Made by a program: the position numbers and the translations under genes. From an uncultured Clostridia bacterium (GTDB taxonomy: Bacteria; Bacillota; Clostridia; Oscillospirales; Acutalibacteraceae), in the NCBI GenBank assembly GCA_944380675.1, contig CALWIH010000002.1:280-64279 (forward strand): a stretch of 64,000 nucleotides of DNA. Reading direction: 5' to 3'. Shown here one piece after another: positions 1 to 35,278 of this stretch. The notes under the pieces were generated by a model. That model made no database searches. It was not told the DNA's origin and saw only the letters and a program-made list of their open reading frames with translations. Each line of letters starts with the position of its first letter. Position 1 is the stretch's first letter.

Positions 1-2253
1 GCCGGTCTTCACGAACTCGTAGCGGATGGCCTGCAGGTAATGGCGCATATGCACCTCTTTGCCGTCGCCGTCGGAGGCGGCAAGGAAGGCGGCGTTCAGG
101 ATGCAGTTCTTGATGTTGCCTCCGACGAACTCGAACCGTTCCGCAAGGAAGCGCAGGTCGACGTCGTCGGCCAGAGGGGTGCCCTTCGGGATCGTCGTCT
201 TCCAGAGGATGTAGCGCGTCTCCGGGTCAGGGAACTGGAACTCGACGATGAACTTCATGCGGCGGAAGAACGCCGGGTCGATGTTGTGCTTGTAGTTCGT
301 CGCGAGGACGGACACACCGTCGTACGCCTCGACCTCCTGCAGCAGGAGGGCCGTCTTGTTGTTGTTGCTCGCCTGGTTGCTGCCGCCGTCGTCGCTGCGC
401 TTGGCGAAGAGCGTGTCGCACTCGTCGAAGAACAGAACGACGTTGCACTTTTTCGCCTCGCGGAAGATCATCGAGATGCTCTTTTCCGTCTCGCCGACGT
501 ACTTGTCGATGACCTTCGAGAGGTCAACGCGGTACAGCTCGAGGTTCAGCGCGTTCGCGAGCACCTGCGCGCACATCGATTTGCCGGTGCCGGGCGCGCC
601 GAACAGCAGCACGGAAAGGCCGCGGCCGTACGGGTACTTGCGGTTGTAGTCCCACTGCTCGTACACCTGCTTGCGGTAGCGCATCTGGTCGCACGCGTGC
701 TCGAGCGCTTCGCGCTGATCCTTCGACATGACGATGTCGTCCCAGGTGTAGGTGGCCTTGATCTTCGTGGCCTTCTTCGTCAGCTCGTGGCTCATCTGGT
801 TGTAGCACGCCTGGAAAAGGCACGAGCGCACAATGTTGAGATATTTCGCCATCGCCGAGAGCGACTTCGCCTGGCGCAGGGCGTTCTTGATTTTTCCGGG
901 GGTAAAGAGGAATTTCGTCGCCATCTCCTGCAGGTCGACGTCGTTGCACAGGACGTAGTCCTTCGCGTAATGACGCCACACCTCCTCGCGCTCCTGATTG
1001 CTCGGCGTCGGGATCTCGAGCTGCGTGAACTCGATCTGCGTCATCTCGCGCAGAGGAAGCTTGTCACGGCTGACGGTGAACGTCGTGATGCCGTGCTTCG
1101 AGAGCTTCTCGAAGGCCAGATCCATGTAGCCGAAGAACTTCTCCTTCTCCTCCTCATGGTACTCGAGGCTGTCGAGGCAGCAGCAGGCGTCGAGCAGGAT
1201 GCACTCGCGGCACAATCCCCAGAGCGCCTTCTCCACGAAGGAGAAATCATACGCGAACAGCTTGCTGCCGTTGACGGAGACGCAGGCGAGCCCGCGGTCG
1301 GCGCAGAAATGGCGGATGGTGAATTTGCGCCCCGCGCCCTCGTCGCCGAAAAGCGAGAACAGACGTGTGCCGTCCTCGTAGGAGATGGTGAGCGCGTCGA
1401 GCACCTCGCGGTTCGCGATGAACGGATCGAGCTCCTTGTCGTCCGTCAGAAGGGTGAAGAAGCGATCGTAGGTGTCGTCGATCCGCTCCGGATGCTTGCC
1501 GAACAGGAAGTCGATGAGACGCTTGTCGGGCGAAATCGGCGTCGAGAACGGCATCGACGGATCGATGCGCAGGTCAATGACGGGACGGAGCGTCTCGAGC
1601 GCCAGCGACATCTCGCCGTACGCCGTCGTCATCGAGAAGCCGTCTCTGTAGTAGACGCGGGCGGCGGACTCAACCGTCGGCGTCGGGGAGGAGCCGTTCT
1701 GGTTGACAATCTGAAAAATGGACGCGTAATTCGTCTGCGTCGAGGAGAGAATCGCGCACGCAAAGCAGAACAGCGTGAAGTCGTCCATTTCGAGCTTCTC
1801 GCTGAGCGCGTAGAGCGGCAGCGGTGTGACGGCGGGGTCGGTGTGCGCGGCGCGGCTTCGCACATAGCGGAACAGCTCCTCAATGGAGGGAGCCGAAGCC
1901 TCCTGCACGGCGGCGCTCTCCGGCTCAGCCTGCGCGAAGCCGGCGAACAGCTCCATCAGATCGCTGTCCTCCTCGAGCGCGGAGATCCCCTCCGGCGCGG
2001 ACTCCGGCGCTTTCGGCGCGGTGCGGGCGGAGAAGTCGGCCAGATGCTTTTCACAGAGGCTGTAGGCGGAATCGATATCGGGGTACAGAATGTTGCGGAA
2101 GCTCCCGTCCTCCCGGGCAAAGAGATCCATCAGGCTTCGGATATGGGAGGAGAGCTGCAGGTCGACGCAGGAGAACAGATAATCTGTGTATTCGCCGTAG
2201 CTTTCAAACGGCTTCTCCATCGTCTCGGGGGAAAAAACGGCGGTCAAATTCAT
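1..2253 (-). CDS. AAA+ ATPase, eCIS Afp15/Pvc15-like (3' end runs off the window edge)
   Basis: Missing from the ORF track; read by hand from ATG at 2253 (MNLTAVFSPETMEKPF...), open to base 1. C-terminal AAA module has Walker A LFGAPGTGKS, YRVDLSKVIDKYVGETEK, Walker B LFFDECD and ATN..IDPAFFRR. A degenerate first module (GDEGAGRKF) lies upstream. Confidence 0.9.
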   Translation of the reverse strand, partial: MNLTAVFSPETMEKPFESYGEYTDYLFSCVDLQLSSHIRSLMDLFAREDGSFRNILYPDIDSAYSLCEKHLADFSARTAPKAPESAPEGISALEEDSDLMELFAGFAQAEPESAAVQEASAPSIEELFRYVRSRAAHTDPAVTPLPLYALSEKLEMDDFTLFCFACAILSSTQTNYASIFQIVNQNGSSPTPTVESAARVYYRDGFSMTTAYGEMSLALETLRPVIDLRIDPSMPFSTPISPDKRLIDFLFGKHPERIDDTYDRFFTLLTDDKELDPFIANREVLDALTISYEDGTRLFSLFGDEGAGRKFTIRHFCADRGLACVSVNGSKLFAYDFSFVEKALWGLCRECILLDACCCLDSLEYHEEEKEKFFGYMDLAFEKLSKHGITTFTVSRDKLPLREMTQIEFTQLEIPTPSNQEREEVWRHYAKDYVLCNDVDLQEMATKFLFTPGKIKNALRQAKSLSAMAKYLNIVRSCLFQACYNQMSHELTKKATKIKATYTWDDIVMSKDQREALEHACDQMRYRKQVYEQWDYNRKYPYGRGLSVLLFGAPGTGKSMCAQVLANALNLELYRVDLSKVIDKYVGETEKSISMIFREAKKCNVVLFFDECDTLFAKRSDDGGSNQASNNNKTALLLQEVEAYDGVSVLATNYKHNIDPAFFRRMKFIVEFQFPDPETRYILWKTTIPKGTPLADDVDLRFLAERFEFVGGNIKNCILNAAFLAASDGDGKEVHMRHYLQAIRYEFVKTG

Positions 2254-2966
2254 CACGATTCTCCTTCGTCCTGAGAGTAGTGAAACACATAGCCCGCGCC
2301 GCGAACCGTGCGGATGAGGCCGTTGTGCTCCGCTCCGATTTTTCTGCGAAGATTGGAAATATGTACCATCACGGTGCGCGTGTCGCCGCAGCTGTCCGTG
2401 TTCCAGACGTTCTCATACAGCTCGTCGTACAGAAGCAGCGTGTCCGGGTGCCGGATCATGTACATCAGGAGATCAAACTCGATGGCGGACGTCGGGACGA
2501 TCTCGCCGTCTCTGCGCACCTCGCGCAGATCGGTGTCCACCGTCAGGCTTCCGAACTCCAGCCGGTGGGGCTTTTCCTGGCGCTTCAGGCGTTCCTCGTA
2601 GAGCTCCCGCTTGCGCAGGTTCGCCTGAATGCGGGCGATCAGCTCGACGTGCTTGACCGGCTTGACCATATAGTCGTCGCCGCCCTGATCGAGAGCCGAG
2701 ATGATGCTTTCGCTGTCGTCGAGGCAGCTGAGAAAGAGGATGGGGCACAGGCTGTCCTTCTCCCGAATCAGCGGACACAGGGAGTTCCCTCTGCCGTCCG
2801 GCAGGATGGAATCGAGCAGGACAAGCTGATAGCTGACGCGCTCGAGCAGCTCCCGCGCTTCGCCGCAGCTTGCCGCTATGTCGACCGCATATCCGGCGTG
2901 GGTGAGATAGAAGGATGTGATGTTGGCCAGATCACAGTCATCCTCTACCAATAAAATGCGGTTCAC
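2253..2966 (-). CDS. OmpR/PhoB-family response regulator
   Basis: Receiver motifs ILLVEDD, LVLLD, DDYMVKP; winged helix RTVMVHISNLRRKI...TVRGAGY. Its TGA overlaps the ATPase ATG (TGATG). Confidence 0.95.
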   Translation of the reverse strand: MNRILLVEDDCDLANITSFYLTHAGYAVDIAASCGEARELLERVSYQLVLLDSILPDGRGNSLCPLIREKDSLCPILFLSCLDDSESIISALDQGGDDYMVKPVKHVELIARIQANLRKRELYEERLKRQEKPHRLEFGSLTVDTDLREVRRDGEIVPTSAIEFDLLMYMIRHPDTLLLYDELYENVWNTDSCGDTRTVMVHISNLRRKIGAEHNGLIRTVRGAGYVFHYSQDEGES

Positions 2967-3053
2967 AGGCTGAATGCCTCCTTTTGGATGGACCCCCGGT
3001 CTGAACTGTGAGGGTGAGCTGTTCCGCTTCGGCAGAACATAAGAATTATTTTT

Positions 3054-3082
3054 ATTGTATCATGTGCCGTTTTCGCTGTCAA
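3054..3082 (-). promoter_or_regulatory. SigmaA-type promoter for the regulator-ATPase operon
   Basis: Minus strand reads TTGACA-N17-TACAAT with a TGn extended -10, about 90 bp upstream of the regulator start. Confidence 0.75.
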
Positions 3083-3178
3083 ATCCGTAAGGAAAGAGCG
3101 GGAAAGAAAAGCTGTCGTGCTTTCAGAGCGCAGGAAAAGCAGGCATATGCAGAAAAAAGAGGAAAAATCCAGATTGTG

Positions 3179-3202
3179 TGCAAGATTCATTTGCATCTTG
3201 CA
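3179..3202. promoter_or_regulatory. Palindromic operator candidate TGCAAGAT-N8-ATCTTGCA
   Basis: Perfect 8-bp inverted repeat in the divergent intergenic region, overlapping the kinase -35. Confidence 0.45.
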
Positions 3203-3219
3203 GAAATATACGATATAAT
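3191..3219 (+). promoter_or_regulatory. SigmaA-type promoter for the histidine kinase
   Basis: TTGCAT-N17-TATAAT ending 35 bp upstream of the kinase ATG. Confidence 0.65.
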
Positions 3220-3254
3220 GAATCCGTTATTTTAGACAGAATGGTGGGTCTGAA

Positions 3255-4271
3255 ATGGAGGCCACGCGCGTTTTGGTTTTGGCTGCCGCCTCTCTCCTGG
3301 CAGCCGGTCTCGGGGCTCTTCTCCCGGAGCTGCCCTTTCCTGTTCGGCTTCTGCTGATTGCCGCGGCGGCCGGACTGACGGCGCTGCAGCTGTCCTTCTG
3401 TTTGCAGGCCGGAGCGGAGAGGGAGAAAAAGCTTCGCGAGACGCAGCTCCGCCTTGAGGAGGCGGAGCGCCACGGGGAGGAGGCTGCGCAGCGCGTGCGC
3501 GAGGAGGCGCAGAAACGGCAGGCGCAGACAAAGGAAAAGCTCGCCGCGTTTTACAGCAAGGCCTCGCACAGCCTTCGCGTCCCGATTTCCGTCGTGCAGG
3601 GATATGCCGATCTGCTCGGCAGCGGGCTGATTCAGGATGAGAGCGTCAGAAGGGAATACCTCAATAAAATCCGCGAGCGCACGGAGTATATGAGCACCGT
3701 TCTCGGCCAGCTTCTCGCGGAGGCCCGCGTGCAGACCGATCTCAGCATTGCCTTCTGGGACAGGTTTGACCTGGTGGAGCTGCTGCGTCAGATTACCGGC
3801 GATATGCAGGAGGCGGCCCTGAAGCTCGGCACAACCATCCGCCTCGTGTCCGAGGTGCGCCGCCTTCCCTTTGAGGGGGACAGGACCCGGCTGACGCGAG
3901 CCTTCTACAATATCCTGGAGAACAGCCTCAAATATATGAACGCCGCGGGCCGCATCACGGTGACGCTCTCCGTCGTGGAGGGAAAGCAGGTCTTCCTTGT
4001 CTTCAAGGACGACGGCGCCGGGATGGATCGCGAGGAGGCAGAGCACGTCTTCGAGCTGAACTACCAGGGCTCGAACGGAGGGCAGGGCAACGGAATGGGG
4101 CTCTATCTGGTGTATGTCACGGCGCTCGCGCATCACGGAAGCGTCAGCGCGCGCAGCGCGCCGGGAGCCGGTATGACCATCCGGATGCTTCTTCCGCTGG
4201 AGCAGAGGGAGAACGCGGCCCGCAGCCGTGCGCGGGAGGCCGCGCAGCCGGATACGGAAAACGCATCGTGA
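3255..4271 (+). CDS. Sensor histidine kinase (two close N-terminal TM helices, no extracellular domain)
   Basis: H-box SHSLRVPISVVQGY, N-box NILENSLKY, G1 DDGAGM, G2 GNGMGL; 338 aa. Confidence 0.93.
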   Translation: MEATRVLVLAAASLLAAGLGALLPELPFPVRLLLIAAAAGLTALQLSFCLQAGAEREKKLRETQLRLEEAERHGEEAAQRVREEAQKRQAQTKEKLAAFYSKASHSLRVPISVVQGYADLLGSGLIQDESVRREYLNKIRERTEYMSTVLGQLLAEARVQTDLSIAFWDRFDLVELLRQITGDMQEAALKLGTTIRLVSEVRRLPFEGDRTRLTRAFYNILENSLKYMNAAGRITVTLSVVEGKQVFLVFKDDGAGMDREEAEHVFELNYQGSNGGQGNGMGLYLVYVTALAHHGSVSARSAPGAGMTIRMLLPLEQRENAARSRAREAAQPDTENAS

Positions 4272-4323: not shown

Positions 4324-4343
4324 TTTTTAGAAAATCTTTAGAA
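4324..4343 (+). promoter_or_regulatory. Direct-repeat regulator box TTTAGAA-N4-TTTAGAA (copy 1)
   Basis: TTTTTAGAAAATCTTTAGAA, 11-bp period, lying where the -35 of the main operon promoter should be; 19/20 identical to the reverse complement of 42438-42457. Confidence 0.6.
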
Positions 4344-4360
4344 AAGTATGAACGAATTTA

Positions 4361-4468: not shown

Positions 4469-6256
4469 ATGGAAAATCGTCAGCTTCTGCCGTTTGAACG
4501 AAACCGCTATTACGTCGGCAAGCTTTTGACCTCTGCTGATTTTCAGGCCGAGCAGAGCTACTTTAACAATAAACGCCGCTTTCTCAATCAGATGATGTTT
4601 GGAGCGGGGATCGTCTGCGGGCTGAGCGTATACAGCCTCGATGATCTCTCCGTCATGGTGGAATCCGGCGCAGCCATCGACGGCCTCGGCCGCGAGATTG
4701 TGGTGGAAAATTCCGTCGTGCGCAAGCTTTCCGCCATCGAGGGCTTCGAATCCCTCACCGGCGAGCACGCCGCCCTCTGCCTGCGCTATCGCGAGGAGGC
4801 CGTGCACCCCGTCTGCACCGTCAACCGGATGGAGCGCGACGAGGAGTATGAGCTCAACCGCCTGCGCGAGGGCTGGGAGCTTTTCCTTACCGACGCGTCG
4901 GAGCTCGGCGGGGAGGAGGCCCCGGAGTCGGAGTTCCTCCTGCAGTCGACGCTCTATGAGGACGCCGATTATTCCGTCACCGTGACGGCGCCCGCCGTCG
5001 CGAGCTGCGGCAGCGCTCTGAAGGTGCTGGTTCGCATTCAGAAGACTTCTGAGGCGGACGGCAGATTTTCCATCGACGGCGTCCTGCAGGCGCCCGCCTT
5101 CCTCACGTCCGACGGCGGCCATGAGGCACGGATTCACGCGGTGGATCTCGCTTTGGAGAAGGACGAGTATTTTGACTGCGTCTGCTGGCTTTCGGCGCAG
5201 CAGCCCGCCGACGAGGCGATTCTGCTGGCAAAGACGGACACGATGCGCATCACGGTCAACGGAGCGGAAAAGCCTGTGCCCGATTCCTTCCTGCTCAAGC
5301 TTTCGGTCTCCTCCGACTCTGTTGAGGACATCCTCTCCCGCGAGGTGGGCCGCGCCAGCCTCGAGACGCGCAGCTTTTCCGCGCCGCCCGAGTACATCCG
5401 GCTCGCCGACATCACCCTGCAGCTGACGAAGAACGCCTACATCATCGACCGCGTCGAGGAGCGCGGCGTGAAGAAATATCTCCATACGACCTCCGGCGAG
5501 GAGACGCGCCGCGCCTACGCGGAATGGTTCTCCGCCGCCGGGACGGACGCGCCCGCCGCAGCCGCGCAGCTGCGCGAGCAGAGAACCGGCGGCCTGACCT
5601 TCCAGGAGCCGCTTTACGCGACCGGCACCTGCGAAATCCCGCTCGGCGACAGAGCGCGCCGCGGCGAGACCTTCTTCTCCGGCGAGATCATGCACGGCCT
5701 CGGCCCCGGCAACGTCTTTGTCCAGGTCGGCTTCGAGTATCTTGCCGAGGACTCCCGCCTCTTCTCGACGGCCCGCAACACGATTTACGGCGACGTCTCC
5801 CTTTTTGAGGCGGAAAAGCTTCCCGTCCCGACGGCGCAGACGGCCGTGAAGGTCATGAACGACCGCGGCAGCTTCGTCGTCGCGGCGCGGCTCGAGAAGG
5901 AGACGTCCTATGTGATGCTCCTCATGCGCTGGGTCGCCGTCAAGATGCCGTCTGAGGACGACCGCGCTCTCCTGCAGAAGATCGCCGACAAGAGCATCAG
6001 CGCCGTGCAGCCCACGATTCTTCTCGGGACGCACGAGAGCTGCTACTTCAACGTCCGCTTCCGCAACATGGAGCCCTGCGGCCTGACGTACGAGCTGACC
6101 GACAGGGATTCCGGCGAAATCACGCCCGACGGCGTATATACGGCGCCGGCGCGCGAGGGCGTGTACGAGATCCGCATCAGCTGTGCCGACGCGCCGCTGA
6201 TCTGCACCTATGCCTATGCGATCGTGAAGAAAAAAGAGCGCGGGGAAGGCGAATGA
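4469..6256 (+). CDS. CIS-associated protein with N-terminal fibre/baseplate-anchor-like domain and C-terminal Ig-like domain
   Basis: ATG 4469 follows GAGGTG (ORF track opens at GTG 4460). I recognise the N-terminus PFERNRYYVGKLLTSADFQAEQSY...RRFLN..FGAGIVCGL from phage-tail/CIS loci. C-terminus GEITPDGVYTAPAREGVYEIRI looks Ig-like. Confidence 0.55.
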   Translation: MENRQLLPFERNRYYVGKLLTSADFQAEQSYFNNKRRFLNQMMFGAGIVCGLSVYSLDDLSVMVESGAAIDGLGREIVVENSVVRKLSAIEGFESLTGEHAALCLRYREEAVHPVCTVNRMERDEEYELNRLREGWELFLTDASELGGEEAPESEFLLQSTLYEDADYSVTVTAPAVASCGSALKVLVRIQKTSEADGRFSIDGVLQAPAFLTSDGGHEARIHAVDLALEKDEYFDCVCWLSAQQPADEAILLAKTDTMRITVNGAEKPVPDSFLLKLSVSSDSVEDILSREVGRASLETRSFSAPPEYIRLADITLQLTKNAYIIDRVEERGVKKYLHTTSGEETRRAYAEWFSAAGTDAPAAAAQLREQRTGGLTFQEPLYATGTCEIPLGDRARRGETFFSGEIMHGLGPGNVFVQVGFEYLAEDSRLFSTARNTIYGDVSLFEAEKLPVPTAQTAVKVMNDRGSFVVAARLEKETSYVMLLMRWVAVKMPSEDDRALLQKIADKSISAVQPTILLGTHESCYFNVRFRNMEPCGLTYELTDRDSGEITPDGVYTAPAREGVYEIRISCADAPLICTYAYAIVKKKERGEGE

Positions 6257-6296
6257 CGCCCGGTATCCTCGCAGCGTGAAAGGGGGGTGAGGCAGG

Positions 6297-7151
6297 TTGG
6301 TTTTTCATGCGGATGATATGCTCCTTTCACCCGTCCGGGAGGTGCTCCGCGGGCCGGTGAACGATATCCTGGTCTGCCGGGATCTGCGCTCCTCTGCGCG
6401 CAGCAGCTACCTCCTGATCGCGATTCGCGACAGAGAGACGGCGAGGCGCGTCCTCGCTGTGCTGCAGAGCTCCCAGCGGGAGACGGGGGGAAAGAGCCCG
6501 TATCTGAAAATGTTCACGGAAAACGAGTATCTCTGCTTCCTGTTCGAATACCGCCCCGAGCGCCGGCTTGACCGCTTTTCCGACGGCCAGCTCACGACGC
6601 CGCAGTCGCGCGAGCGCGTGTGCGTCAACCTTGTGATGGAGTGCCTGTCGAGCGCGCTGCCGTTCCCGCTTCTTTATCTTGCGCTTGAGAAGGAGAACGT
6701 CCACCTGCTGCAGGACGACGGCGTGTATCTCACCTGCTGCTTCGATCTCAGCCGCCTCGACGAGTCGATCGGCGAGGCCGAGTGCGCGGATCGCTGCGTG
6801 CAGATCCTTCTCGACCTTCTGCGCCGCCAGTCGCGGCGTCAGCTCAAGAGCTTTGAGCTTCTGCGGAAAAAATCCGAGCGCGGCGCGTACGGGAGCCTTC
6901 CGGAATTATACCGCGATATCCGCTTCTCCTCGCTCCCCGAGCAGAAGACGCCGTTCCGCAAACGGTTGGCGGCCTTCTGGGAGCGAAACAAGGATCTCTT
7001 TTTCCGCATTCTGCTGCGCGTCTGCGTGATTCTTGCCGCCGCGGCGGTGATTATTCTGATTTGCCAGCTTCTGTTCGGCGGATTCCCGCTGCTTCGCCTG
7101 TTCCAGAACACCTTTGAGGTGATTGGGACGGAAAATCTGACGATGGCCTGA
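6297..7151 (+). CDS. Membrane-anchored protein with probable pseudokinase fold
   Basis: TTG start. LEKENVHLLQDDGVYL resembles the kinase catalytic-loop region without HRD or DFG. Single C-terminal TM (ILLRVCVILAAAAVIILICQLLF). Confidence 0.5.
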   Translation: MVFHADDMLLSPVREVLRGPVNDILVCRDLRSSARSSYLLIAIRDRETARRVLAVLQSSQRETGGKSPYLKMFTENEYLCFLFEYRPERRLDRFSDGQLTTPQSRERVCVNLVMECLSSALPFPLLYLALEKENVHLLQDDGVYLTCCFDLSRLDESIGEAECADRCVQILLDLLRRQSRRQLKSFELLRKKSERGAYGSLPELYRDIRFSSLPEQKTPFRKRLAAFWERNKDLFFRILLRVCVILAAAAVIILICQLLFGGFPLLRLFQNTFEVIGTENLTMA

Positions 7152-7167
7152 AAGGAGGAAGCCCGGA

Positions 7168-9696: not shown

Positions 9697-9724
9697 CCGG
9701 TATTCGGGGAAAGGCGGGTGACCG

Positions 9725-10984: not shown

Positions 10985-10986
10985 GA

Positions 10987-13029: not shown

Positions 13030-13051
13030 CGCCGGGAAAGGAGGGGACGAC

Positions 13052-27419: not shown

Positions 27420-28228
27420 GCTTTTACGATATCATCGGGGAAATCTCCGACAAGCAGGCGACGAAAACGCAGACGGGCGACACGAGGATCTACGGCGTTG
27501 TCATCGGCGTTGTCACCAAGAATTACGATAAGAATATGCCCGGGCGCGTCTGCGTCAATATCCCCACGCGCGACGCGGAGGCCAACGTCCTCAAATGGGC
27601 GCGTCAGGCGCTGCCGGGCAGCGGGTCCGACTGGGGCTATTACTTCCTCCCCGAGGTGGGAGACCAGGTGCTGCTCGCGTTTGAGGGCGGCAGCATCGAA
27701 AAGCCGTATATCATCGGCTGTCTGCCGAAGGACAACTCGAAGCTTCTGAGCAAGACGGTCGACGAGAGCAACCAGTTCAAGCGCATCATGACGAAGAACG
27801 GAAGCGCCGTCATCTTTGAGGACAACAAGGAAGGCGACGGCGAGAAGGATAAAATCACGGTAGAGACGGCGGGTCAGAGCCATCAAATCCTGATGGACAA
27901 CGAGAACAAGGTGATCCGCGTCAGCGATAAGAAGAAGGAAAACATGGTCGAGCTCTCAACCGAGAGCGGTCAGATGGTGATCAAGGCCAAATCGAAGCTG
28001 ACCATTCAGGTCGGCGACAACATCAAGATGATTTTCAACGGGGATTCCGGCGCCGTGCAGATTCAGGCGAAGGATTTCTCCGTTCAGGCCAGCAACAGCC
28101 TCCAGATGAAGACAGACAGTACGCTCAAGCTGCAGGGAGCGCAGATCAACCAGTCCGCTTCCTCCATGTATAAGGCGGAGAGCAGCGGCATGGTGACGAT
28201 CTCCGGCAGTCCCATCAAACTTGGCTGA
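27416..28228 (+). CDS. Baseplate spike protein (gp5/gpV OB-fold, VgrG C-terminal half)
   Basis: GTG 27416 after GGAGGTG, overlapping the gpD stop (GTGA). GVVIGVV, GRVCV, WAR, YFLPEVGDQVLLAFEGG...PYIIG, beta-repeat tail ending ISGSPIKLG. Confidence 0.9.
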   Translation: MSFYDIIGEISDKQATKTQTGDTRIYGVVIGVVTKNYDKNMPGRVCVNIPTRDAEANVLKWARQALPGSGSDWGYYFLPEVGDQVLLAFEGGSIEKPYIIGCLPKDNSKLLSKTVDESNQFKRIMTKNGSAVIFEDNKEGDGEKDKITVETAGQSHQILMDNENKVIRVSDKKKENMVELSTESGQMVIKAKSKLTIQVGDNIKMIFNGDSGAVQIQAKDFSVQASNSLQMKTDSTLKLQGAQINQSASSMYKAESSGMVTISGSPIKLG

Positions 28229-28248: not shown

Positions 28249-28674
28249 ATGGAAAATAAGATGTTTTTGGGGACCGGGTTCCATTTTCCCCCGAGCGTGG
28301 ATCCGGGCACCGGGCGGTTTCTGACGTCCTCCGGCGAGCAGAGCGTCAGGGAGTCCGTTTATCTGATCCTCATGACGCAGCAGGGGGAGAGGTGGCTCCT
28401 TCCCGGCTTCGGCAGCAACCTGATGAGCTATACCTTCATGGATCCGTCTGTCACGATGCTCAGCGTGCTTTCCAACAGCCTGCGCGCCACGCTGATGGAG
28501 CAGGAGCCGCGTATCTCCGACGTGCAGGTGGAGGTCGACCCCGAGGTGCAGGACGGCTGCCTGTTCGTCAACATCTCCTACACGGTGGCGGCCACGAACA
28601 GCCGGGACAATCTGGTATTCCCATTCTATCTGAATTCGTCGAGGGAGGAGGGTTCCGATGAGACGCAGCAATAA
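28249..28674 (+). CDS. GPW/gp25 baseplate wedge protein (Afp9-like)
   Basis: FLGTGFHFPP, SVRESVYLILMTQQGERWLLPGFGS, EQEPRI, ISYTVAATNSRDNLVFPFYL. Confidence 0.93.
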   Translation: MENKMFLGTGFHFPPSVDPGTGRFLTSSGEQSVRESVYLILMTQQGERWLLPGFGSNLMSYTFMDPSVTMLSVLSNSLRATLMEQEPRISDVQVEVDPEVQDGCLFVNISYTVAATNSRDNLVFPFYLNSSREEGSDETQQ

Positions 28675-31600
28675 CGAAGCCCTTCTCGACACGCGGGACG
28701 TCGCCGCTCTGCGCCGTGAAATCGCCGGACTCGCGGCCTCGTATACTCCCGAATGGGCGTTTTCCGAGACAAACCCCGATGTCGGCTCCGTTGTCGGCCT
28801 CGTATTCGCCAACCAGATGAGCGAAAATATCCGGAAAATGAACCTCGTGATGGAGAAGTACCACACGGAGTTTGTCAATATGCTCAATCTCTCGCTGCGC
28901 CCGGCCTATCCGGCCTCGGGCGTGGTGGTCATGAATCTGATTGCGGGGACTATCCCCGGCGTTTACGTCCCCTCCGGCACGCGCCTGATTGGCAGAAACG
29001 AGGAGGACGGCCGGCAGATTCCCTTTGAGACGACGTCGGACGTCTATGTCACGAGCGCGCGCCTGACAGACGTCTTTTCCGCCTCGGGCTCGTTCGGCAG
29101 GCTGATTCCGGCTCTCGGTGCGAGAAAGCGCAGGGAGCTGCCCGGGGAGGCCGCGGCGCCCGCCCCGGAGGAGGGAGCCGCCTCGGAGCCCCCGGTTCCC
29201 GAGGAAATCCCGCTGTTCGATTTCTCGGGCGGCGGCGTCGAGCGGTGGGCGCTTGTTTTGACGCACGACACCATTTTCCGCGTGCAGGAAAACGCGGAGC
29301 TTTGTCTGCGCCTGCGCAGCCCTGCGGGCGAGGATCTCTCCGCCGTGTTTGCCGATCCGGAGCGCTTCTCCTGGAGCTACCTCGTCGGGGAGCGGTTTCT
29401 GCCCTTCTCCCGCGCGGAGGCGGCGGACGGAACGCTCCGCCTGTACCGCGATGCGCCGGATGGGCAGGAGACCCTCGACGCGCCGGACTGCACCGTGATC
29501 TGTGTCGAAGCGCTCTCGCCCGTGCTGGAAAACATCACGCTGGGAGAGCTCTCCGTCTCGTCCCGCTGCGGCGGGATTGCCCCCGAAATCGTGTTCGACG
29601 GAACCTCGGAGCTGGATCGGGAGAGCTTCCTGCCCTTCGGGGAGATGGTCTCCCTGTTCGACGAATGCACCATCGGCGCGGACGCTGTTTTCAGCCAGAA
29701 GGACGCGATGGCGGAGCTTTCCTTCCGCCTCTCCGTGCAGGAGCGGCTCGTTCCGCTGAGTCAGGCGCAGGAGCTCGAGGAGCTGCGCATCATCAAGCGC
29801 AAGCCGCGCACCATTCAGTATCAGGCGGCGAGAACCTCTCCGCAGAAGGTGGAGCTCGAATACTTCAACGGCGTCGGCTGGCGCAGGCTTCCCTGCGAGG
29901 ACGACTGGAGCGAGCTCTTTGACGGGACGCGCACGGGGGATTTCACCATTCGTTTCCGCTGCCCGGCCGACTGGATGCCGGCTGTGTCCGGCGGCTACGA
30001 GGGGCGCTCCCTTCGCCTGCGCGTCACGCGGGCGGACGACTGCTATCTGCGTCCCTGTCTGCACACAATGCCGCGCCTTTCCCGGGTGAGGCTTTCCTAC
30101 TCGTATTTTGACGATTGGAAGACGCCCCAGCGCCTTACCTCCCTCAGCGGCACGGAGCTGTTCGATCTCACGGGAAGGATGCGCGCCGGAGAGTCGTTTG
30201 AAGCCTTCCGCGTCCTGCCGTACGCGGGCAACGCGCTGTATCTCGGTTTTGACCGCCCCATGCAGGGCGCGCCGGTCAGCATCCTGTTCGACGTGGCGGA
30301 CAACGCCAATTTTGTCGACGCGCCGCTGCGCTTTGAGTATTCCACGAGAGACGGGTTCGAGCCCCTGCGCGTGGTCGACCACACGCGGAATCTTTCGGAG
30401 TCCGGCACGGTTCTGTTCCTGCCTCCGTCCAATTTTGCGAAGCGCTCCATGGAAGGGCAGGATCGCTGGTGGATCCGCCTGGTCGACGAGAGGGGACGCT
30501 TCGACGACCCGAACGTCTATCACCCCGTCATCCGGCGTATTCTGCTTAACGCGGCGGAGGTGCGCAACCAGGTGACAATGCCCGAGGAGGTGTTCTATAT
30601 CAGCGCCTCCGTTCCGAATATGGAGTTTGCGCTTTCGTCGCGCAATATTCTTTCCGCCGAGGTGTTCGTCAGCGAGATCGGGCGGCTCTCCGTCCCGGCG
30701 ATGCGCGCCATGGCGGAGGAGAGGCCGCAGGACGTCCGCGTCGAATACGATTTTCTCGGGGAAATCACGGAGTTTTTCGTCCGCTGGACGGAGGTTGACA
30801 ATTTTGACGCCTCCCGTCCCGGCGATCGCCACTATACGCTCGACCGCATGAACAGCGTGCTGCGCTTCGGCGACGGCGTCTCCGTCGCCATACCGCCCGC
30901 GCAGAACGGACCCGCCTTCACCGTCCGGGCCGTCTGCTGCGACGGCGGCGCGGGCAATCTGCCCGCCGGCTCCATCCGCGAGCCCTTCTCGCAGCTGCTC
31001 TACGTCGACGAGCTTTCCAACCCGCTGCCGACGTCGTCGGGCAGCGATCTCGAGAGCGTCGAGAGCGCCCGCGCCCGCGGCGCGAATCTCATCTGCTCGA
31101 AGAACCGGCTTGTCAGCGAGCTCGATTTTCTGCGCGAGGTGGAGGCGTTTTCCTCATCGGTGAAAAAGGTGCGCTGCGTCGTCGGGGAGGATTTCGACGG
31201 GACGAAGCGCCCCGACGCCGTCAGTATCGCCGTGCTGACGGAGGATTTTGAGGACAGCGACCGGTCGTTTGCGAATCTGCGCGATCGCCTCTACAGCCAT
31301 CTGATGGGGAAAAGCGAGGCAACGCTTCGCGAGCTGCTGATTGGCGAGCCCTCGTGCGTTGAGATTTCCGTCTCGGTCTGGGCGGAGACGAACGATCTCG
31401 AAAGAACGCTCGAGATTCAGGAAACGCTGCGCCGCCGCATCACGGAGTTTCTCAATCCGATGACAGGCGGCAGCGGCGGCGGCTGGCCGATCGGCGTTCT
31501 GCCGGGGGAGGCTCAGCTGAGCCGGATGCTTCATTCTGTCGACTGCGGCGCCTTTGTGCTGCGGTACTGCGCGACGGCGCGCTATGTCGATCGCAGAGGC

Positions 31601-31693
31601 GTCCACGAGAAGAGCCTCGGCGATATCCGCCCGACGCCGTTCATGCTCGGCGTAAGCGGGACGCATACGATTTTTGTCCGCCAGGCGCCGTAA
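28658..31693 (+). CDS. Baseplate J-like protein (Afp11-like)
   Basis: LLDTRD...LAASYTPEW...PDVG, D.HYTLDRMNSVLRFGDG...IPP, GGAGNLPAGSI, NPLPTSSGSDLE, NRLVSELDF. Confidence 0.85.
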   Translation: MRRSNNEALLDTRDVAALRREIAGLAASYTPEWAFSETNPDVGSVVGLVFANQMSENIRKMNLVMEKYHTEFVNMLNLSLRPAYPASGVVVMNLIAGTIPGVYVPSGTRLIGRNEEDGRQIPFETTSDVYVTSARLTDVFSASGSFGRLIPALGARKRRELPGEAAAPAPEEGAASEPPVPEEIPLFDFSGGGVERWALVLTHDTIFRVQENAELCLRLRSPAGEDLSAVFADPERFSWSYLVGERFLPFSRAEAADGTLRLYRDAPDGQETLDAPDCTVICVEALSPVLENITLGELSVSSRCGGIAPEIVFDGTSELDRESFLPFGEMVSLFDECTIGADAVFSQKDAMAELSFRLSVQERLVPLSQAQELEELRIIKRKPRTIQYQAARTSPQKVELEYFNGVGWRRLPCEDDWSELFDGTRTGDFTIRFRCPADWMPAVSGGYEGRSLRLRVTRADDCYLRPCLHTMPRLSRVRLSYSYFDDWKTPQRLTSLSGTELFDLTGRMRAGESFEAFRVLPYAGNALYLGFDRPMQGAPVSILFDVADNANFVDAPLRFEYSTRDGFEPLRVVDHTRNLSESGTVLFLPPSNFAKRSMEGQDRWWIRLVDERGRFDDPNVYHPVIRRILLNAAEVRNQVTMPEEVFYISASVPNMEFALSSRNILSAEVFVSEIGRLSVPAMRAMAEERPQDVRVEYDFLGEITEFFVRWTEVDNFDASRPGDRHYTLDRMNSVLRFGDGVSVAIPPAQNGPAFTVRAVCCDGGAGNLPAGSIREPFSQLLYVDELSNPLPTSSGSDLESVESARARGANLICSKNRLVSELDFLREVEAFSSSVKKVRCVVGEDFDGTKRPDAVSIAVLTEDFEDSDRSFANLRDRLYSHLMGKSEATLRELLIGEPSCVEISVSVWAETNDLERTLEIQETLRRRITEFLNPMTGGSGGGWPIGVLPGEAQLSRMLHSVDCGAFVLRYCATARYVDRRGVHEKSLGDIRPTPFMLGVSGTHTIFVRQAP

Positions 31694-31753
31694 TCCCCAT
31701 GCGGGCGGCGGTCTGCGGAAGAAAACAATATGGGAACCGGGAGGAAATCGGAA

Positions 31754-33868
31754 ATGCTGAACAGCATCAATTTGGATGATAAGAGCTATGAGGATATTCT
31801 GGCGGAGGCCATTTCCCAGGTTCCTCTTTATTCGGACGAGTGGACAAATTTCAATCATTCCGATCCCGGCGTCACCGTCCTGCAGAATTTTTCCGCGTTT
31901 GCCCTTCTGCAGCAGACGTCCATCAACGAGATCACCGAGCCCATACGGCGGAACCTCCTGCGCCTTCTCGGCTTTGAGGCTGGGCGGGACAAGCCCGCGC
32001 GCGCGTATGTGGCCTGCACGGCGTCCGAGCGGATCTCGCTGCCGGCGCACTGGAAGTGCCGCGTCGGCTCCCTTTGCTTTGAGACGGAAGCGCCCGCGGT
32101 CGTCGAGCCCTGGGCTGTTTCCGCCTGCTATACGAAAAAGCCCGGCGGTGAGTACCGCGACGTCTCCTATCTGCTGGGCCGCGCCATTCCGGTGGACGTC
32201 GCCGTCTTCGGCAGAAGGCCGGATCGCGGCAGAACGGTGTGCTGCGCGCTCAGCGGACGCCCGGAGCCGGGCTCCGAGAGCGTGTTCTGGGTGCAGGCCG
32301 CGAAGACGGCGGGACGCAGCCCGTTCAGCGCCGAGTTTCCCGTGCGCTTCGCCGAGCTTAAATGGCAGTGCTTCACCGCGTCGGGCTGGGTCGATATGGA
32401 GGCTCAGGATGAGACGGGCGGCTTTCTGCAGAGCGGAGCCGTGCGCCTGACCTTCCCCGCCGAGCCGCTTGCGCTGTGCGCGGAGCTTCCCAAGCCCGCG
32501 TACGCCGTCCGCTGCGTCCTCACGCGCGCGGAGTACGACGTTCCGCCTCGCATCAATTCCCTGACGGGGAACCTGCTGCGGCTTGTGCAGCAGGAGACGC
32601 GCGCCGCCGCGTTTTCCTTTTGCGGCGCGCAGGAGGTGATCGTGCGCAGCGCGATGGTTTCCTACGGCAGCCTGTTTGTCTGCTGCCGCGAGGAGGAGGG
32701 CGGCCCCCTCTTCGCTTACACGGCGTGGAACGGGAAGAAAAAGCGCGGCCGCTTTTTCCAGTCCGAGCGTCTCTCCGACGGCTCCCTCGCCATTCGCTTC
32801 GACGCCGCCCGCTTCGGCTTCGGCCCCGCGCGGGACGTCCCGGACGCCGTCCTTGCCCTGTGCTGGGACGAGGAGATGATGTATCACCGCAGCCTCGGTC
32901 CCGTCTGCGGATATGAAAATCAGATGATAGAGCTCGACCAGCTCGAGCACATCGTCGGCGATTCCTTCGCCGTGCTCGCGGAGCTGACCGACCGCGAGGG
33001 AAAGGTAACGTACCGCCTCATCCCTCCCGGCCTGACGGATCCCGACGACCTGTGCTACGAGGTGCTCACCGCGCCCGGGCAGCTGCGGATCCGGGAGCCC
33101 GGCCTCGGCGGCTGCCGCCTCTTTCTCGCGTCGTGCGCCGTCACGGCGGGGAAAAACGGCAACATCCGCGAGCAGAACGCTTTTGTCCCCGTCCTTCCCG
33201 ATTCGGTTCCGGCGGGCACAACGCTCCGCAATCCTGCCGCCGGACAGGGCGGAGAGACGTACGAGACGCTGGAGGAGCTTCGCCTCCGTTTCGCCGCCGC
33301 CATGCGCAGGCCGACGACGGCGGTCACGGCGAGCGATTACGAGGATATCGTCATGAGGACGCCCGGCCTGTGCATCCACAAGGTGAAGGCCGTCGTCGAC
33401 GAGCAGGCCAACAGCGTGAGCATTGCGGTTCAGCCCCGGTCCGAGGAGCCGGAGCCGCAGATCAGCGCGGTCTATGAGCGTCAGATCCGCCGCTGGCTGG
33501 AAGCGCACCGCCTGCTTTCCGTGCAGATCCATTTGCTGCAGCCGCAGTATGTCCGCGTGAATGTCCGCGCGACGATTTTTGTCAAGAGCTATTACAGCGG
33601 CGCGAGGGAGGAAATCGAAGCCGTCCTGAACCGCCATCTTGATTTCAGCGCCGCCGATCGCGGCTTCGGGGAGATCATCTCATACCACGAGCTCGTCCGC
33701 GATCTCGAGCAGCTTCCGTGCGTCGAATCTGTTTACGAACTGTTCTTGATTCCTCTCGCAAAGAGTGATATGATGTATACAGGCCATGACGTGAAGCTCG
33801 GGAACCACAGCATCTGCCGCCCCGGTTCCTATTCGCTCGAGCTGAGCACGCGCACCGGAAGCTATTGA
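31754..33868 (+). CDS. Baseplate J-like protein 2 (Afp11/12-like)
   Basis: ATG 31754 after GGAGG. INLDDKSYEDIL...PLYSDEWTNFNHSDPGVTVLQ, AGQGGETYETL, TTAVTASDYE. Confidence 0.85.
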   Translation: MLNSINLDDKSYEDILAEAISQVPLYSDEWTNFNHSDPGVTVLQNFSAFALLQQTSINEITEPIRRNLLRLLGFEAGRDKPARAYVACTASERISLPAHWKCRVGSLCFETEAPAVVEPWAVSACYTKKPGGEYRDVSYLLGRAIPVDVAVFGRRPDRGRTVCCALSGRPEPGSESVFWVQAAKTAGRSPFSAEFPVRFAELKWQCFTASGWVDMEAQDETGGFLQSGAVRLTFPAEPLALCAELPKPAYAVRCVLTRAEYDVPPRINSLTGNLLRLVQQETRAAAFSFCGAQEVIVRSAMVSYGSLFVCCREEEGGPLFAYTAWNGKKKRGRFFQSERLSDGSLAIRFDAARFGFGPARDVPDAVLALCWDEEMMYHRSLGPVCGYENQMIELDQLEHIVGDSFAVLAELTDREGKVTYRLIPPGLTDPDDLCYEVLTAPGQLRIREPGLGGCRLFLASCAVTAGKNGNIREQNAFVPVLPDSVPAGTTLRNPAAGQGGETYETLEELRLRFAAAMRRPTTAVTASDYEDIVMRTPGLCIHKVKAVVDEQANSVSIAVQPRSEEPEPQISAVYERQIRRWLEAHRLLSVQIHLLQPQYVRVNVRATIFVKSYYSGAREEIEAVLNRHLDFSAADRGFGEIISYHELVRDLEQLPCVESVYELFLIPLAKSDMMYTGHDVKLGNHSICRPGSYSLELSTRTGSY

Positions 33869-33891
33869 TCGTGTGAAAAGGAGAGAGAGCC

Positions 33892-34953
33892 ATGGCCGCA
33901 CTCGTTAGAAAATATGTCATCGGGAAAAATCGCCTGGCGCAGGGGCTGTATCGCGGCTTTACGCTCGACGGCGGTGAGCTGCGCACCTCCGGCGAGGGCG
34001 TGCGCAGCGTTCTGTACCTGGCCGCCCTGGACAGCGCGGAGCGCGACTGCGAATGGGGCCGCCTTGCCTTTGACGCGAAGCTTGACGCCGATATGACGCT
34101 GGGCGTGCGCGCCTTTGCCTCCAACGAGCCGAAATTTGTCCGCAAAGGGCGCGTGACGGATACCGACAGCTTCCTGCTGGACGATTCCGCGGAGGATGAC
34201 GCGAAGAACGTCCTGTTTGAAAAATCGGGCGGTATCGGCGCGGCGGGCGTGACGGATCTGCTTCTGACCGGCCTTTCCGGGCGCTATCTCTGGATCAGCG
34301 TCGAGGTGCTCGGCGCGGGCAGCGCCTCGCTCGGCAATTTCCGCGTATATTCTCCCGAGGATAATTTCTTCAACAGCTTCCCGGAGGTGTACCGCACCAA
34401 CGGCGAGTTTTTCCGGCGTTATATGGCGGTGTTCAACGTCATGTACGCCGACTTTCAGGAGAAGATCGACTCGCTCGATCGCTGTCTGGACATTGATACG
34501 GCGCCCGCCTCCCTTCTTCCCGTATTTGCCCGCTGGCTCGGCCTTGAGCTGGACGGCAATTTTCTGGAGGAGGACCAGCTCCGCCGGCTGCTCAAAAACG
34601 CGTTTTCCCTCATCTCCGCGAAGGGGACGCGCCGCGCTGTGGAGGGCGTCGTGCGGATTCTGACGGACGCGCCCGTCTATGTGCTCGAGCGGCAGTCGTC
34701 CCGCGGAGGCGAAAGTCCGTATGATTTTACGGTGCTTCTCCAGTGCGCTCCCGATGAGCGCCTGTATTCGCAGCTTCAATTTCTGCTTCGGCAGTTCAAG
34801 CCCGTGCGAGGAGAGGTCAGCCTTGTCTTTCTCGGGAAAAGCGGCCGCCTCGATTCGTATGCGTGCCTTGACATCAACGCCTGCGTGACGGAGCCGCAGC
34901 CCGGCCGGGCGGACAGGGGAGCCGTTTTGAACGGTCTGACCTGTTTGCAGTAA
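33892..34953 (+). CDS. Phage tail protein I-like (P2 gpI) baseplate protein
   Basis: FPEVY, FFRRYMAVF, LDIDTAPASLLPVFARWLGL, KGTRRAVE, QFKPV. Confidence 0.8.
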   Translation: MAALVRKYVIGKNRLAQGLYRGFTLDGGELRTSGEGVRSVLYLAALDSAERDCEWGRLAFDAKLDADMTLGVRAFASNEPKFVRKGRVTDTDSFLLDDSAEDDAKNVLFEKSGGIGAAGVTDLLLTGLSGRYLWISVEVLGAGSASLGNFRVYSPEDNFFNSFPEVYRTNGEFFRRYMAVFNVMYADFQEKIDSLDRCLDIDTAPASLLPVFARWLGLELDGNFLEEDQLRRLLKNAFSLISAKGTRRAVEGVVRILTDAPVYVLERQSSRGGESPYDFTVLLQCAPDERLYSQLQFLLRQFKPVRGEVSLVFLGKSGRLDSYACLDINACVTEPQPGRADRGAVLNGLTCLQ

Positions 34954-34978
34954 GCATTTCAAAGGAGGAAACGACCTT

Positions 34979-35278
34979 ATGACGATTTCATCCAGCATCA
35001 AAGACAATCAGGCGGTGCTTCTGGTGGATGGGCGCGTGGATACGAACACGAGTCCGCAGCTTCAGAGCGCCATTCTCGGCGCCTTTCAGCGGTCGGCTCA
35101 CGTTGTGGTCGACTTTGAGAAGGTTCCCTACATCAGCAGCGCCGGTCTTCGCGCGCTCCTGATTGGCCAGAAGACAGCGAACTCGAAGCGGGCCGTGATG
35201 GAGCTTGTCCATGTCTGTCCCGCCGTGATGTCGATTCTGCAGTCCGTCGGCTTCAGCGATATTCTGACGATCCGCTGA
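34979..35278 (+). CDS. STAS anti-anti-sigma factor (RsbV/SpoIIAA-like)
   Basis: VDGRVDTNTSPQL, VVVDFEKVPYISSAGLRALL (phosphoacceptor Ser motif); AAGGAGG RBS, 25 bp after the tail-I stop. Confidence 0.93.
   Translation: MTISSSIKDNQAVLLVDGRVDTNTSPQLQSAILGAFQRSAHVVVDFEKVPYISSAGLRALLIGQKTANSKRAVMELVHVCPAVMSILQSVGFSDILTIR

Follow-up and report, generated by a model that had tools for sequence, protein, structure and literature searches.

The stretch of DNA analysed here, hereafter the window, comprises 64,000 nucleotides of a metagenome-assembled genome (MAG) of a Clostridia bacterium (C2:280-64279; 2.7 Mb in 188 contigs, 92.9% complete). Its positions 1-35278 very probably encode a real, intact, chromosomal and headless contractile injection system (CIS) of the "type II" branch, i. 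e. the branch distinct from the antifeeding prophage (Afp) and the Photorhabdus virulence cassettes (PVC), in a gut-type MAG of the Oscillospirales. To judge from gene order in related genomes, the structural genes are inherited together with an envelope module of six genes, an OmpR-type two-component system, and a switch made of STAS, PP2C and RsbW-like proteins. We suggest, with a confidence that falls somewhat short of an even chance, that the machine acts at or through the envelope of its own producer, where it would be docked and gated by the module, and that it is not released by lysis. In addition, a candidate programmed -1 frameshift site may join a tail assembly chaperone to a protein of the DUF6760 family. 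With this locus, a widespread, unstudied family of Clostridial CIS gains a further member.

The structural genes of the injection machine

Scans of the window proteins with Pfam, NCBIfam and PHROG profiles form the basis of the gene map (Table 1). They recovered the core CIS set (sheath, inner tube, gp25, spike and baseplate-J/gp6-like proteins) together in one locus, and moreover the Cis16 cap (DUF4255) and a dedicated Cis15 AAA+ ATPase, both of which are also encoded in the CIS cluster of the haloarchaeon Halogeometricum borinquense. A preliminary description of the window had called the system complete and intact, with no frameshifted or broken core genes, and had proposed just such a search for Afp-type families: All structural genes that it listed were found, and no core gene is broken since the lengths of all genes agree with those of the orthologues in close relatives. 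The family scans also bear out the single sheath gene and the spike that is split into gpD and gp5 halves; one sheath copy per genome is found in eight relatives as well, the exception being a weak second match (E 5e-5) in Bengtsoniella. Two details have to be modified. The spike tip is indeed encoded upstream of the sheath, but it is a PAAR-like protein of the DUF4280 family. Likewise, the gp19-type tube gene stands whereas the second of the two proposed tube genes (20547-21662) is only weakly tube-like: In BLASTP searches its N-domain matches the tube with an E value of 0.011 and the second Halogeometricum tube gene with 6e-5. As the N-domain alone is conserved among the relatives, the tail of this protein and the region downstream are a variable spot, possibly for cargo. 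The tail has about 200 residues, is acidic and disordered, and contains a tandem repeat (EEPDIGPPSPVDPSELP).

A co-directional array of tightly spaced genes on the plus strand spans positions 3255-35278, and the regulator and the ATPase (1-2966) are encoded divergently. The gene for the gp5/gpV spike half has a GTG start codon, which overlaps with the stop codon of gpD. The tape-measure candidate had no match in the family scans or in the PDB search, and relatives conserve only its C-terminal part; the 267-amino acid protein encoded between the cap and the tip had no family match in the Pfam, NCBIfam and PHROG scans. According to the PDB search, the ATPase is of the Cdc48/p97 type with one AAA domain, and it shares 33% identity with the ATPase of the Halogeometricum cluster. 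On the genome contig, its full open reading frame (ORF) stops about 230 bp short of the contig end. As only 279 bp of the contig precede the window, the left flank of the locus in its own genome is out of view. A canonical type VI secretion system has a two-part TssB/TssC sheath, ClpV and TssJLM, whereas no Tss family was reported in any scan of the locus, the sheath is encoded by one phage-type gene, and the ATPase is Cdc48-like.

The host genome

The MAG has a GC content of about 62%, and a search of its contigs found no 16S rRNA gene. Orthologues of the ATPase with 88-90% identity occur in MAGs named Anaeromassilibacillus and Candidatus Caccousia, and those with 62-70% identity in Oscillibacter valericigenes An890, Pseudoflavonifractor phocaeensis An507, Agathobaculum, Flavonifractor and Bengtsoniella intestinalis BP47G (a closed genome), as well as in Lachnospiraceae and in termite-gut MAGs of Family XIII and Gracilibacteraceae. 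These orthologues bear out the assignment to the Clostridia made in the preliminary description. More than 8000 close relatives of the sheath occur in metagenomes, the nearest with a name being that of a Hydrogeniiclostridium MAG (89%). By these comparisons the host is a gut-type member of the Oscillospirales near Anaeromassilibacillus and Ca. Caccousia. No match to LpxC was found in the host genome while four diderm controls did match, and Pfam searches revealed YpeB sporulation genes and an SLH surface protein in the flanks of the relatives' loci. It is therefore well supported, and likely, that the host is a monoderm, as had been proposed before.

A conserved envelope module

Between the kinase and the cap gene lie six genes (4469-15733) that had not been singled out in the earlier reading. 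The first of them encodes the Cis13-like protein u598, in which an N-terminal baseplate-attachment domain of about 150 residues is followed by a string of Ig-like beta-sandwich domains (AlphaFold2 model, AF2, pLDDT 76); for this model, Foldseek returned only generic Ig-like matches with low TM-scores. The protein is conserved end to end, to the last residues, in 27 orthologues and has no variable tip, a pattern that in sequence terms is unlike that of a diversifying target-binding fibre or receptor binder. The second protein, u284, has 24 orthologues with a mean column identity of 53%, and no significant Pfam or PDB match to its fold was found. When the idea that it might be a dead kinase was followed up, the best comparison to kinase domains gave an E value of about 2, with no Pfam match.

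The third protein, HAMP842, is a receptor with a beta-propeller-like and a PAS/Cache-like outer domain, followed by the HAMP domain, a class III cyclase fold and a TPR-like tail (AF2 pLDDT 84). In Foldseek searches the cyclase fold matches Cya2, CyaB and Rv1625c with TM-scores of about 0.7 and root-mean-square deviations of 3-4 A over about 195 residues, and the sequence has chemoreceptor and weak cyclase profile matches. Residues 500-830 are the conserved part, also in a sister lineage (see below). We take the catalytic positions of class III cyclases to be the metal-binding Asp pair and the transition-state Asn/Arg. Where the corresponding F-x-D-I and V-N..R motifs are expected from the general layout of these enzymes, the family consensus reads S..N and L-S-S. 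Because the consensus appears to lack these motifs, HAMP842 is probably a pseudo-enzyme with a degenerate cyclase site. The remaining genes encode a bitopic MORN-repeat protein (MORN419), a secreted protein with TolC-like helical hairpins (OEP682; PF02321, TIGR01844), and an anchored wall-type protein (CuAO893). The Cu_amine_oxidN1 domain of the latter was found in five out of seven orthologues (best E 3e-5), and a role of CuAO893 as a wall hydrolase or lysis protein was rejected, as no hydrolase domain was found.

Co-inheritance of the module with the injection system and its distribution

The same six module genes adjoin the CIS in the same order in Oscillibacter valericigenes, Bengtsoniella, Lachnospiraceae AB2028, two further Clostridia genomes and many MAGs; indeed, they are syntenic with the CIS in every relative examined. 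The ATPase and the regulators, by comparison, occupy three different positions relative to the module across the related loci. The module proteins share 27-53% identity with those of the window, similar to the 30-51% observed for the baseplate proteins, and the TolC-like gene is present as a single copy in 40 of the 42 genomes that carry an orthologue of the ATPase.

For the class as a whole, 400 evenly drawn Clostridia species were sampled. A sheath at a threshold of E <= 1e-60 was detected in only seven of them, besides the window's own species. Overall, a CIS of this family very probably occurs in about 1-2% of Clostridia species, which belong to many families. The TolC-like gene, which was looked for in these seven sheath-positive genomes only, was found in just two, those with a sheath identity of at least 66%. 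A sister Clostridial lineage (L086-L089, genomes G367 and G051) with a sheath identity of about 51% has the canonical gene order, with the Cis13-like gene after the P2_I gene. This lineage has MORN-like and HAMP-receptor-like genes and no TolC-like gene, which points to the HAMP receptor as an old companion of the CIS clade. Cultured carriers of the locus are O. valericigenes An890, P. phocaeensis An507, B. intestinalis BP47G, an Agathobaculum sp. and Lachnospiraceae AB2028.

Relation to studied injection systems

In a PDB search the best match of the sheath was 9ezm, the Cis2 protein of H. borinquense (E 2e-109), followed by Streptomyces sheaths at about 1e-92 to 1e-94 (8bky, E 2e-94); the sheaths of Afp, PVC, AlgoCIS and the Anabaena system reached only about 1e-43, and those of pyocin and T4 about 1e-10. 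For both baseplate paralogues, Streptomyces Cis11 was the only solved match. By this measure the Halogeometricum system is the closest studied relative, though not a close one. This haloarchaeal CIS ("archaeal T6SS", clade IIa; T6SS, type VI secretion system) is bound to the cytoplasmic membrane and mediates contact-dependent killing (PMC11566945). It shares with the Clostridial locus the split spike (VgrG/Pvc8-like plus gpV), two Cis11 paralogues, the cap, the ATPase, a Cis13-like N-domain, and the pair of chaperone and DUF6760 protein (50% and 41% identity). In contrast, its cluster has no tape-measure gene, has a true PAAR gene between spike and gp25, encodes DUF6760 as a separate gene with an ATGA overlap and no frameshift, and contains DUF4157 toxin pairs; moreover, its host has an S-layer envelope without a thick wall. 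To judge from position and topology, the six-transmembrane protein encoded upstream of the archaeal cluster is probably Hbor_38620, the putative anchor.

The Streptomyces systems (S. coelicolor and S. venezuelae; 8bky, 8bl4, 9gtp) have in common with the window the monoderm host, the second-best sheath and the Cis11 match to both paralogues. They are cytoplasmic and need the membrane protein CisA, which is encoded in the cluster (PMC12237407). They differ in that they act inside a producer with a mycelial life cycle, and in that CisA is a single bitopic protein, as opposed to six genes with large outer domains. Afp, PVC and AlgoCIS, which are headless as well, share the core parts list (Cis1, 2, 5/7, 8, 9, 11, 12 and 14-16), but have two or three sheath genes instead of one, more distant sheaths, a fused spike, the PAAR gene in the baseplate block, fibres with variable tips, and no membrane module.

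Within the Clostridia, a toxin encoded next to the eCIS (extracellular CIS) locus of Ruminiclostridium cellulolyticum H10 has been tested and validated (PMC8213781), complete eCIS loci of subtype IIb have been reported in silico for Acutalibacteraceae symbiont MAGs (bioRxiv 10.1101/2025.07.29.667580), and the diffocins are characterised contractile bacteriocin particles of the class (PMC10996793). The catalogued Clostridial loci belong to the same class, type II by homology, and those of the symbiont MAGs, compared by their description, possibly to the same family; the symbiont genomes differ in being small and of low GC content, and the reports mention no envelope module, signalling set or frameshift. 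The preliminary description knew of no functionally characterised Clostridia example. This holds in so far as our literature search brought up no work on the function or structure of such a Clostridial CIS, but the novelty is weaker than it appeared since such loci have already been catalogued in silico. Neither a description of the envelope module nor one of the frameshift was found in the literature searched.

How the machine may act

Several observations suggest that the machine is coupled to the envelope: The module is co-inherited with the CIS and encoded in the same tightly spaced, co-directional array, its proteins have the membrane topologies and folds predicted above, the Cis13-like protein has no variable tip, the nearest studied relatives are not free particles, the candidate regulator box is far more frequent than expected, and no gene of the locus had a holin/endolysin or other lysis-domain match in the Pfam scans. 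That the system is extracellular, as the preliminary description had it, was an assumption which does not stand as such, given nearest studied relatives that are membrane-bound or cytoplasmic and the conserved envelope module in the locus. If the envelope-coupled reading is right, the response regulator would first turn on the long operon via TTTAGAA direct repeats (see below). A particle of fixed length would then be built in the cytoplasm on the 915-residue tape measure, helped by the chaperone pair resulting from -1 frameshifting and by the AAA+ ATPase. Next, the baseplate would use the Cis13-like protein to dock onto those parts of the membrane module that face the cytoplasm, and finally envelope signals sensed by the HAMP receptor, together with the phospho-switch, would gate assembly or firing. 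It is tempting to speculate that such an envelope-docked injector is a Gram-positive weapon resembling the type VI system that fires across its own thick wall into neighbours upon contact or envelope damage, an extension which we regard as rather doubtful. If the module is indeed a docking and gating device, it would represent a new solution to the problem of anchoring and triggering a CIS, and also a new way for cells in the gut to antagonise or signal to each other. CIS have been studied in depth in Gram-negative bacteria, in cyanobacteria, in Streptomyces and in one archaeon; for the Clostridia that dominate animal guts we found no such study, and the cultured carriers make the use of such a machine by a thick-walled monoderm directly testable.

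Several points weigh against the predicted envelope-coupled machine. The sheath identity to Halogeometricum is 37%, no higher than that to CIS sheaths encoded on plasmids of Burkholderia, Rhizobium, Kitasatospora or Deinococcus and about the same as that to phage BCD7, and the sheath tree gives no firm order for the deep nodes that connect the Clostridial, haloarchaeal, actinobacterial, Deinococcus and proteobacterial CIS. None of u284, HAMP842, MORN419, OEP682 and CuAO893 has a homologue in the Halogeometricum cluster, and conversely the archaeal six-transmembrane protein (388 amino acids), the putative anchor, found no counterpart in the window by BLASTP (best E 3.8); the parallel with the archaeal anchoring is therefore one by analogy only. 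The Ig-like domains at the end of u598 are typical of fibres and adhesins and would suit a fibre equally. No wall hydrolase was found in the six-gene module, and the thick Gram-positive wall is a real obstacle to outward firing. Moreover, the helical barrel of a TolC-type protein does not offer enough room for a CIS tube to pass. Finally, the role of the receptor, the kinase and the switch could be purely to regulate a particle that is released, and tape measure and cap fit a free particle of fixed length equally well.

These last points lead to the alternative that the system is a classical extracellular CIS, released by lysis and binding its targets via the Cis13-like Ig protein, with module and switches serving only to time production or release. 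We consider this unlikely, if still worth serious attention. Nothing is lacking from the Afp-type list of parts, with cap, ATPase, tape-measure candidate and a protein in the fibre position all present, and the Ig-like domains of that protein are in keeping with target binding. In addition, DUF4157/eCIS_core, the usual marker of eCIS toxins, occurs in the flanks of relatives and in the Halogeometricum cluster, and to our knowledge many known eCIS loci have no lysis genes of their own. However, the fibre-position protein has no variable tip, the nearest studied relatives are not extracellular, and in every lineage checked the CIS comes with co-inherited, co-oriented genes for five membrane or secreted proteins, which no studied eCIS is known to need. 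Furthermore, neither a toxin-like gene nor an eCIS_core/DUF4157 match was found in the locus or in the window's own genome, a negative result that must be seen together with the control set, which gave no match either.

By analogy with Streptomyces, the system might instead be intracellular and fire under stress into the membrane of its own cell, resulting in regulated death or in differentiation such as sporulation, with the module in the role of CisA. Among solved structures, those of the Streptomyces sheaths rank second (E 1.6e-94), Cis11 alone matches both paralogues, and these systems require a membrane adaptor (PMC12237407). The locus also encodes regulators of the stress type (the STAS/PP2C/RsbW-like set and the intramembrane-type kinase), and the hosts belong to spore-forming lineages, as indicated by YpeB in the flanks. 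Yet the large extracytoplasmic parts, i. e. propeller, MORN repeats, TolC-like protein and wall-type protein, are not obviously needed for inward action, and the hosts are unicellular gut anaerobes rather than mycelial organisms; we therefore regard this possibility as improbable.

Phage relatives and the sheath tree

The best phage sheath, that of Bacillus phage BCD7 (L091), shares 36.6% identity with the sheath of the window, and terminase and portal genes are located about 7 kb upstream of it. BCD7 is a true myophage with the same tube-tube-tape-measure-gp25-baseplate-J order. Gene order and sheath likeness hint at a phage stock behind this CIS branch. The ten Clostridial sheaths fall into a single clade (support 94/99) of a maximum-likelihood tree; within it, the eight from module-bearing loci make up a subclade (100/100), and the sampled phage sheaths are placed outside the Clostridial clade on long branches. 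A scan of 99 ORFs in 14 flanks from 11 related genomes gave 106 Pfam families, the 25 most frequent of which include acetyltransferases, AAA+ ATPases, sporulation (YpeB), transporters, methyltransferases and surface genes, housekeeping in character; no capsid, portal, terminase or lysis family is among these 25. The flanks differ between close relatives. Two ORFs with eCIS_core/DUF4157 and four with further AAA+ ATPases were observed in the relatives' flanks (alignment A1).

A remnant prophage tail or an R-type bacteriocin (tailocin) such as diffocin is thus very improbable: The BCD7 sheath is as similar as those of other CIS, tape measure and gpG/GT-like frameshift are phage traits, and the left flank beyond the contig start is out of view, but the DUF4255 cap and the dedicated AAA+ ATPase are CIS hallmarks, the relatives' flanks vary by genome and have no head or lysis family among their 25 most frequent, the locus is single-copy and syntenic across families, its sheath clade excludes the sampled phages, and, with respect to a bacteriocin, Cis15 and Cis16 are present and the Pfam scans of the locus gave no holin/endolysin family. 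The tree and the two hallmark genes speak for the distinction between CIS and prophage that had been drawn from the window at the outset.

A candidate frameshift between chaperone and DUF6760

The gene for the tail assembly chaperone-like protein u120, which is 50% identical to the 178-amino acid gene product encoded ahead of DUF6760 in Halogeometricum, overlaps a DUF6760 segment in the -1 frame, and a slippery heptamer lies in the correct phase shortly before the chaperone stop codon (Table 1). The identical heptamer A_AAT_TTT is found at the same place in nine Clostridial loci of different families, and in a tenth it is replaced by T_TTT_TTG. Its AT-rich codons are kept although AAC and TTC would be preferred in genomes this rich in GC. 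Stop codons just upstream and the lack of a canonical start codon at the beginning of the DUF6760 domain characterise the -1 frame in most loci; gene callers report a 59-amino acid DUF6760 fragment or nothing. These features suggest a conserved programmed -1 frameshift site, a candidate for joining the tail chaperone to DUF6760 in a predicted fusion of about 191 amino acids. A downstream stimulatory RNA structure was not better than in shuffled sequences (z -0.8), and in Lachnospiraceae AB2028, the exception, a TTGA start-stop overlap is present as well. Synthesis of DUF6760 by termination-reinitiation at an ATAA/TTGA overlap fits Halogeometricum (ATGA) and one Lachnospiraceae locus, and this explanation was rejected because it does not account for the nucleotide conservation of the heptamer and for its exchange against another canonical heptamer.

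The arrangement is reminiscent of gpG/gpGT of phage lambda and gpE/gpE+E' of P2: there, too, two overlapping frames with a canonical in-phase -1 heptamer lie between the tube and tape-measure genes. In contrast to these phages, the Clostridial system is headless, the extension belongs to the DUF6760 family, and the product is a predicted one. No paper mentioning DUF6760, or a frameshift in a CIS, came up in the literature searches. The frameshift would assign a role to this uncharacterised family.

Regulation

That the locus is regulated, as had been proposed, is plausible: A two-component system as well as a STAS/PP2C/RsbW-like set recur with it. The response regulator gene is located directly upstream of the ATPase gene in nearly all related loci, where the trio with the divergent kinase recurs. 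With two N-terminal transmembrane helices that are three residues apart and almost no outer loop, the kinase appears to be of the intramembrane-sensing type. The 288-bp gap between the divergent genes contains two promoter-like sites, identified by consensus match only: TTGACA-17-TACAAT on the minus strand (3082-3054; 11/12 matches) and TTTGCA-18-TATAAT on the plus strand (3190-3219; 10/12). The direct repeat TTTAGAA-N4-TTTAGAA has three perfect copies in the window as compared to 0.06 expected, and the copy upstream of u598 is kept ahead of the orthologous gene in loci of the closest relatives, in the same orientation in three (L001, L003, L004), in the opposite one in L072, and with one mismatch in L032. 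The repeat is likely the binding site of the OmpR-type regulator. In all lineages checked, the structural array closes with the STAS gene, which follows the P2_I gene in Oscillibacter, Bengtsoniella and Lachnospiraceae.

Table 1. Features of the CIS locus and its surroundings. Positions refer to the window; aa, amino acids; TM, transmembrane segment (residues); E, expectation value.
Feature	Position	Strand	Remarks
Cis15/Afp15-like AAA+ ATPase	1-2256	-	About 769 aa; last 17 codons and stop left of window; PF00004 E 7.6e-27, residues 549-674
OmpR-type response regulator	2253-2966	-	Response_reg and Trans_reg_C; stop overlaps ATPase start
Divergent promoter region	2967-3254	.	288-bp gap; sigma-70-like sites facing both ways
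Histidine kinase	3255-4271	+	HisKA and HATPase_c; TM 6-24, 28-46
TTTAGAA-N4-TTTAGAA direct repeat, candidate regulator box	4326-4343	+	About 125 bp upstream of the Cis13-like gene, ahead of the long plus-strand operon
Cis13-like protein (u598)	4469-6256	+	598 aa, soluble; CIS13_fam (NCBIfam) E 1e-27, residues 12-158, below cut-off
u284	6297-7151	+	284 aa; cytoplasmic domain of about 237 aa and C-terminal TM anchor; TM 238-256
HAMP842, polytopic receptor	7168-9696	+	842 aa; four TM; HAMP E 1.5e-6
MORN419, bitopic MORN-repeat protein	9725-10984	+	MORN E 6.6e-12; TM 70-88; 25 orthologues
OEP682, secreted TolC-like coiled-coil protein	10981-13029	+	PF02321 E 2.2e-7; TIGR01844 E 1.5e-9; N-terminal signal-like segment
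CuAO893, N-terminally anchored extracytoplasmic wall-type protein	13052-15733	+	893 aa; coiled coil; TM 6-24; C-terminal Cu_amine_oxidN1-type domain
Cis16/Afp16-like cap (DUF4255)	15752-16345	+	Pvc16_N E 1.1e-29
Conserved 267-aa protein	16349-17152	+	Between cap and tip genes; orthologues at same place in 8 loci
PAAR-like spike tip	17153-17536	+	DUF4280 E 1.1e-24; weak IglG match
Sheath (Cis2), sole sheath gene	17639-19339	+	Phage_sheath_1 and 1C
Inner tube	19378-19875	+	Phage_T4_gp19 E 3.7e-35; TIGR02241 above its cut-off
Tail assembly chaperone-like protein (u120)	19949-20311	+	120 aa; phrog_508 E 1.8e-6
Slippery heptamer A_AAT_TTT	20290-20296	+	Correct phase for -1 shift; 19 nt before chaperone stop
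DUF6760 segment, -1 frame	20296-20523	+	DUF6760 E 2.9e-15; overlaps chaperone gene
Divergent tube-like N-domain (about 165 aa) and acidic, repeat-bearing disordered tail	20547-21662	+	N-domain weakly tube-like
Tape-measure candidate	21692-24439	+	915 aa, Glu/Arg/Gln-rich; called on position and composition only
CIS_tube protein A (baseplate-proximal tube, Cis7-like)	24548-25363	+	PF19266 E 1.1e-16
CIS_tube protein B	25376-26203	+	PF19266 E 2.1e-15
gpD/VgrG-related spike half	26229-27419	+	VgrG_rel E 1.6e-15; YQBQ-like
gp5/gpV OB-fold spike half	27416-28228	+	Phage_base_V E 1.2e-19; 270 aa as in relatives
gp25 baseplate wedge	28249-28674	+	GPW_gp25 E 1.5e-17
Cis11-like baseplate protein a	28658-31693	+	1011 aa; Streptomyces 9gtp_1K E 1.6e-17; TIGR02243 E 5e-35
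Cis11-like baseplate-J protein b	31730-33868	+	712 aa; Baseplate_J; 9gtp_1K E 3.9e-18
Tail_P2_I baseplate protein (Cis12-like position)	33892-34953	+	PF09684 E 6.8e-11
STAS protein, last gene of structural array	34979-35278	+	STAS E 3.6e-14
SpoIIE-type PP2C phosphatase	35500-36936	-	PF07228 E 2.3e-52; recurs near locus in relatives
RsbW-like serine kinase (HATPase_c_2)	41352-41804	-	PF13581 E 2e-21; recurs near locus in relatives
TTTAGAA-N4-TTTAGAA box	41947-41964	+	Flanks 87-aa ORF
87-aa ORF	41959-42222	-	Heads RsbW-NRPS-PP2C strand (NRPS, nonribosomal peptide synthetase); no Pfam match
TTTAGAA-N4-TTTAGAA box	42438-42455	-	Flanks 87-aa ORF

Neighbouring genes

Between the genes for the PP2C phosphatase and the RsbW-like kinase, a single-module NRPS (C-A-T-reductase) is encoded on the minus strand (36963-41222). 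It has no match in the Bengtsoniella or Lachnospiraceae loci, in which the PP2C and RsbW-like genes are closer together. Further to the right, positions 43549-56895 hold a GTPase-centred block resembling a conflict system, with a Double-GTPase, two Hsp70 paralogues (one with a VWA domain), a 1041-amino acid zinc-ribbon protein, a RING/GTPase-like protein and a GAP1-M protein. It is followed at 57233-62785 by genes for an ATPase of the HerA/FtsK type (1147 amino acids), an Endonuclease_NS_2 toxin-like protein, a YezG-like immunity protein and a transglutaminase-like protein; by its gene content, this region looks like a cassette in the style of polymorphic toxins that lies outside the CIS locus.

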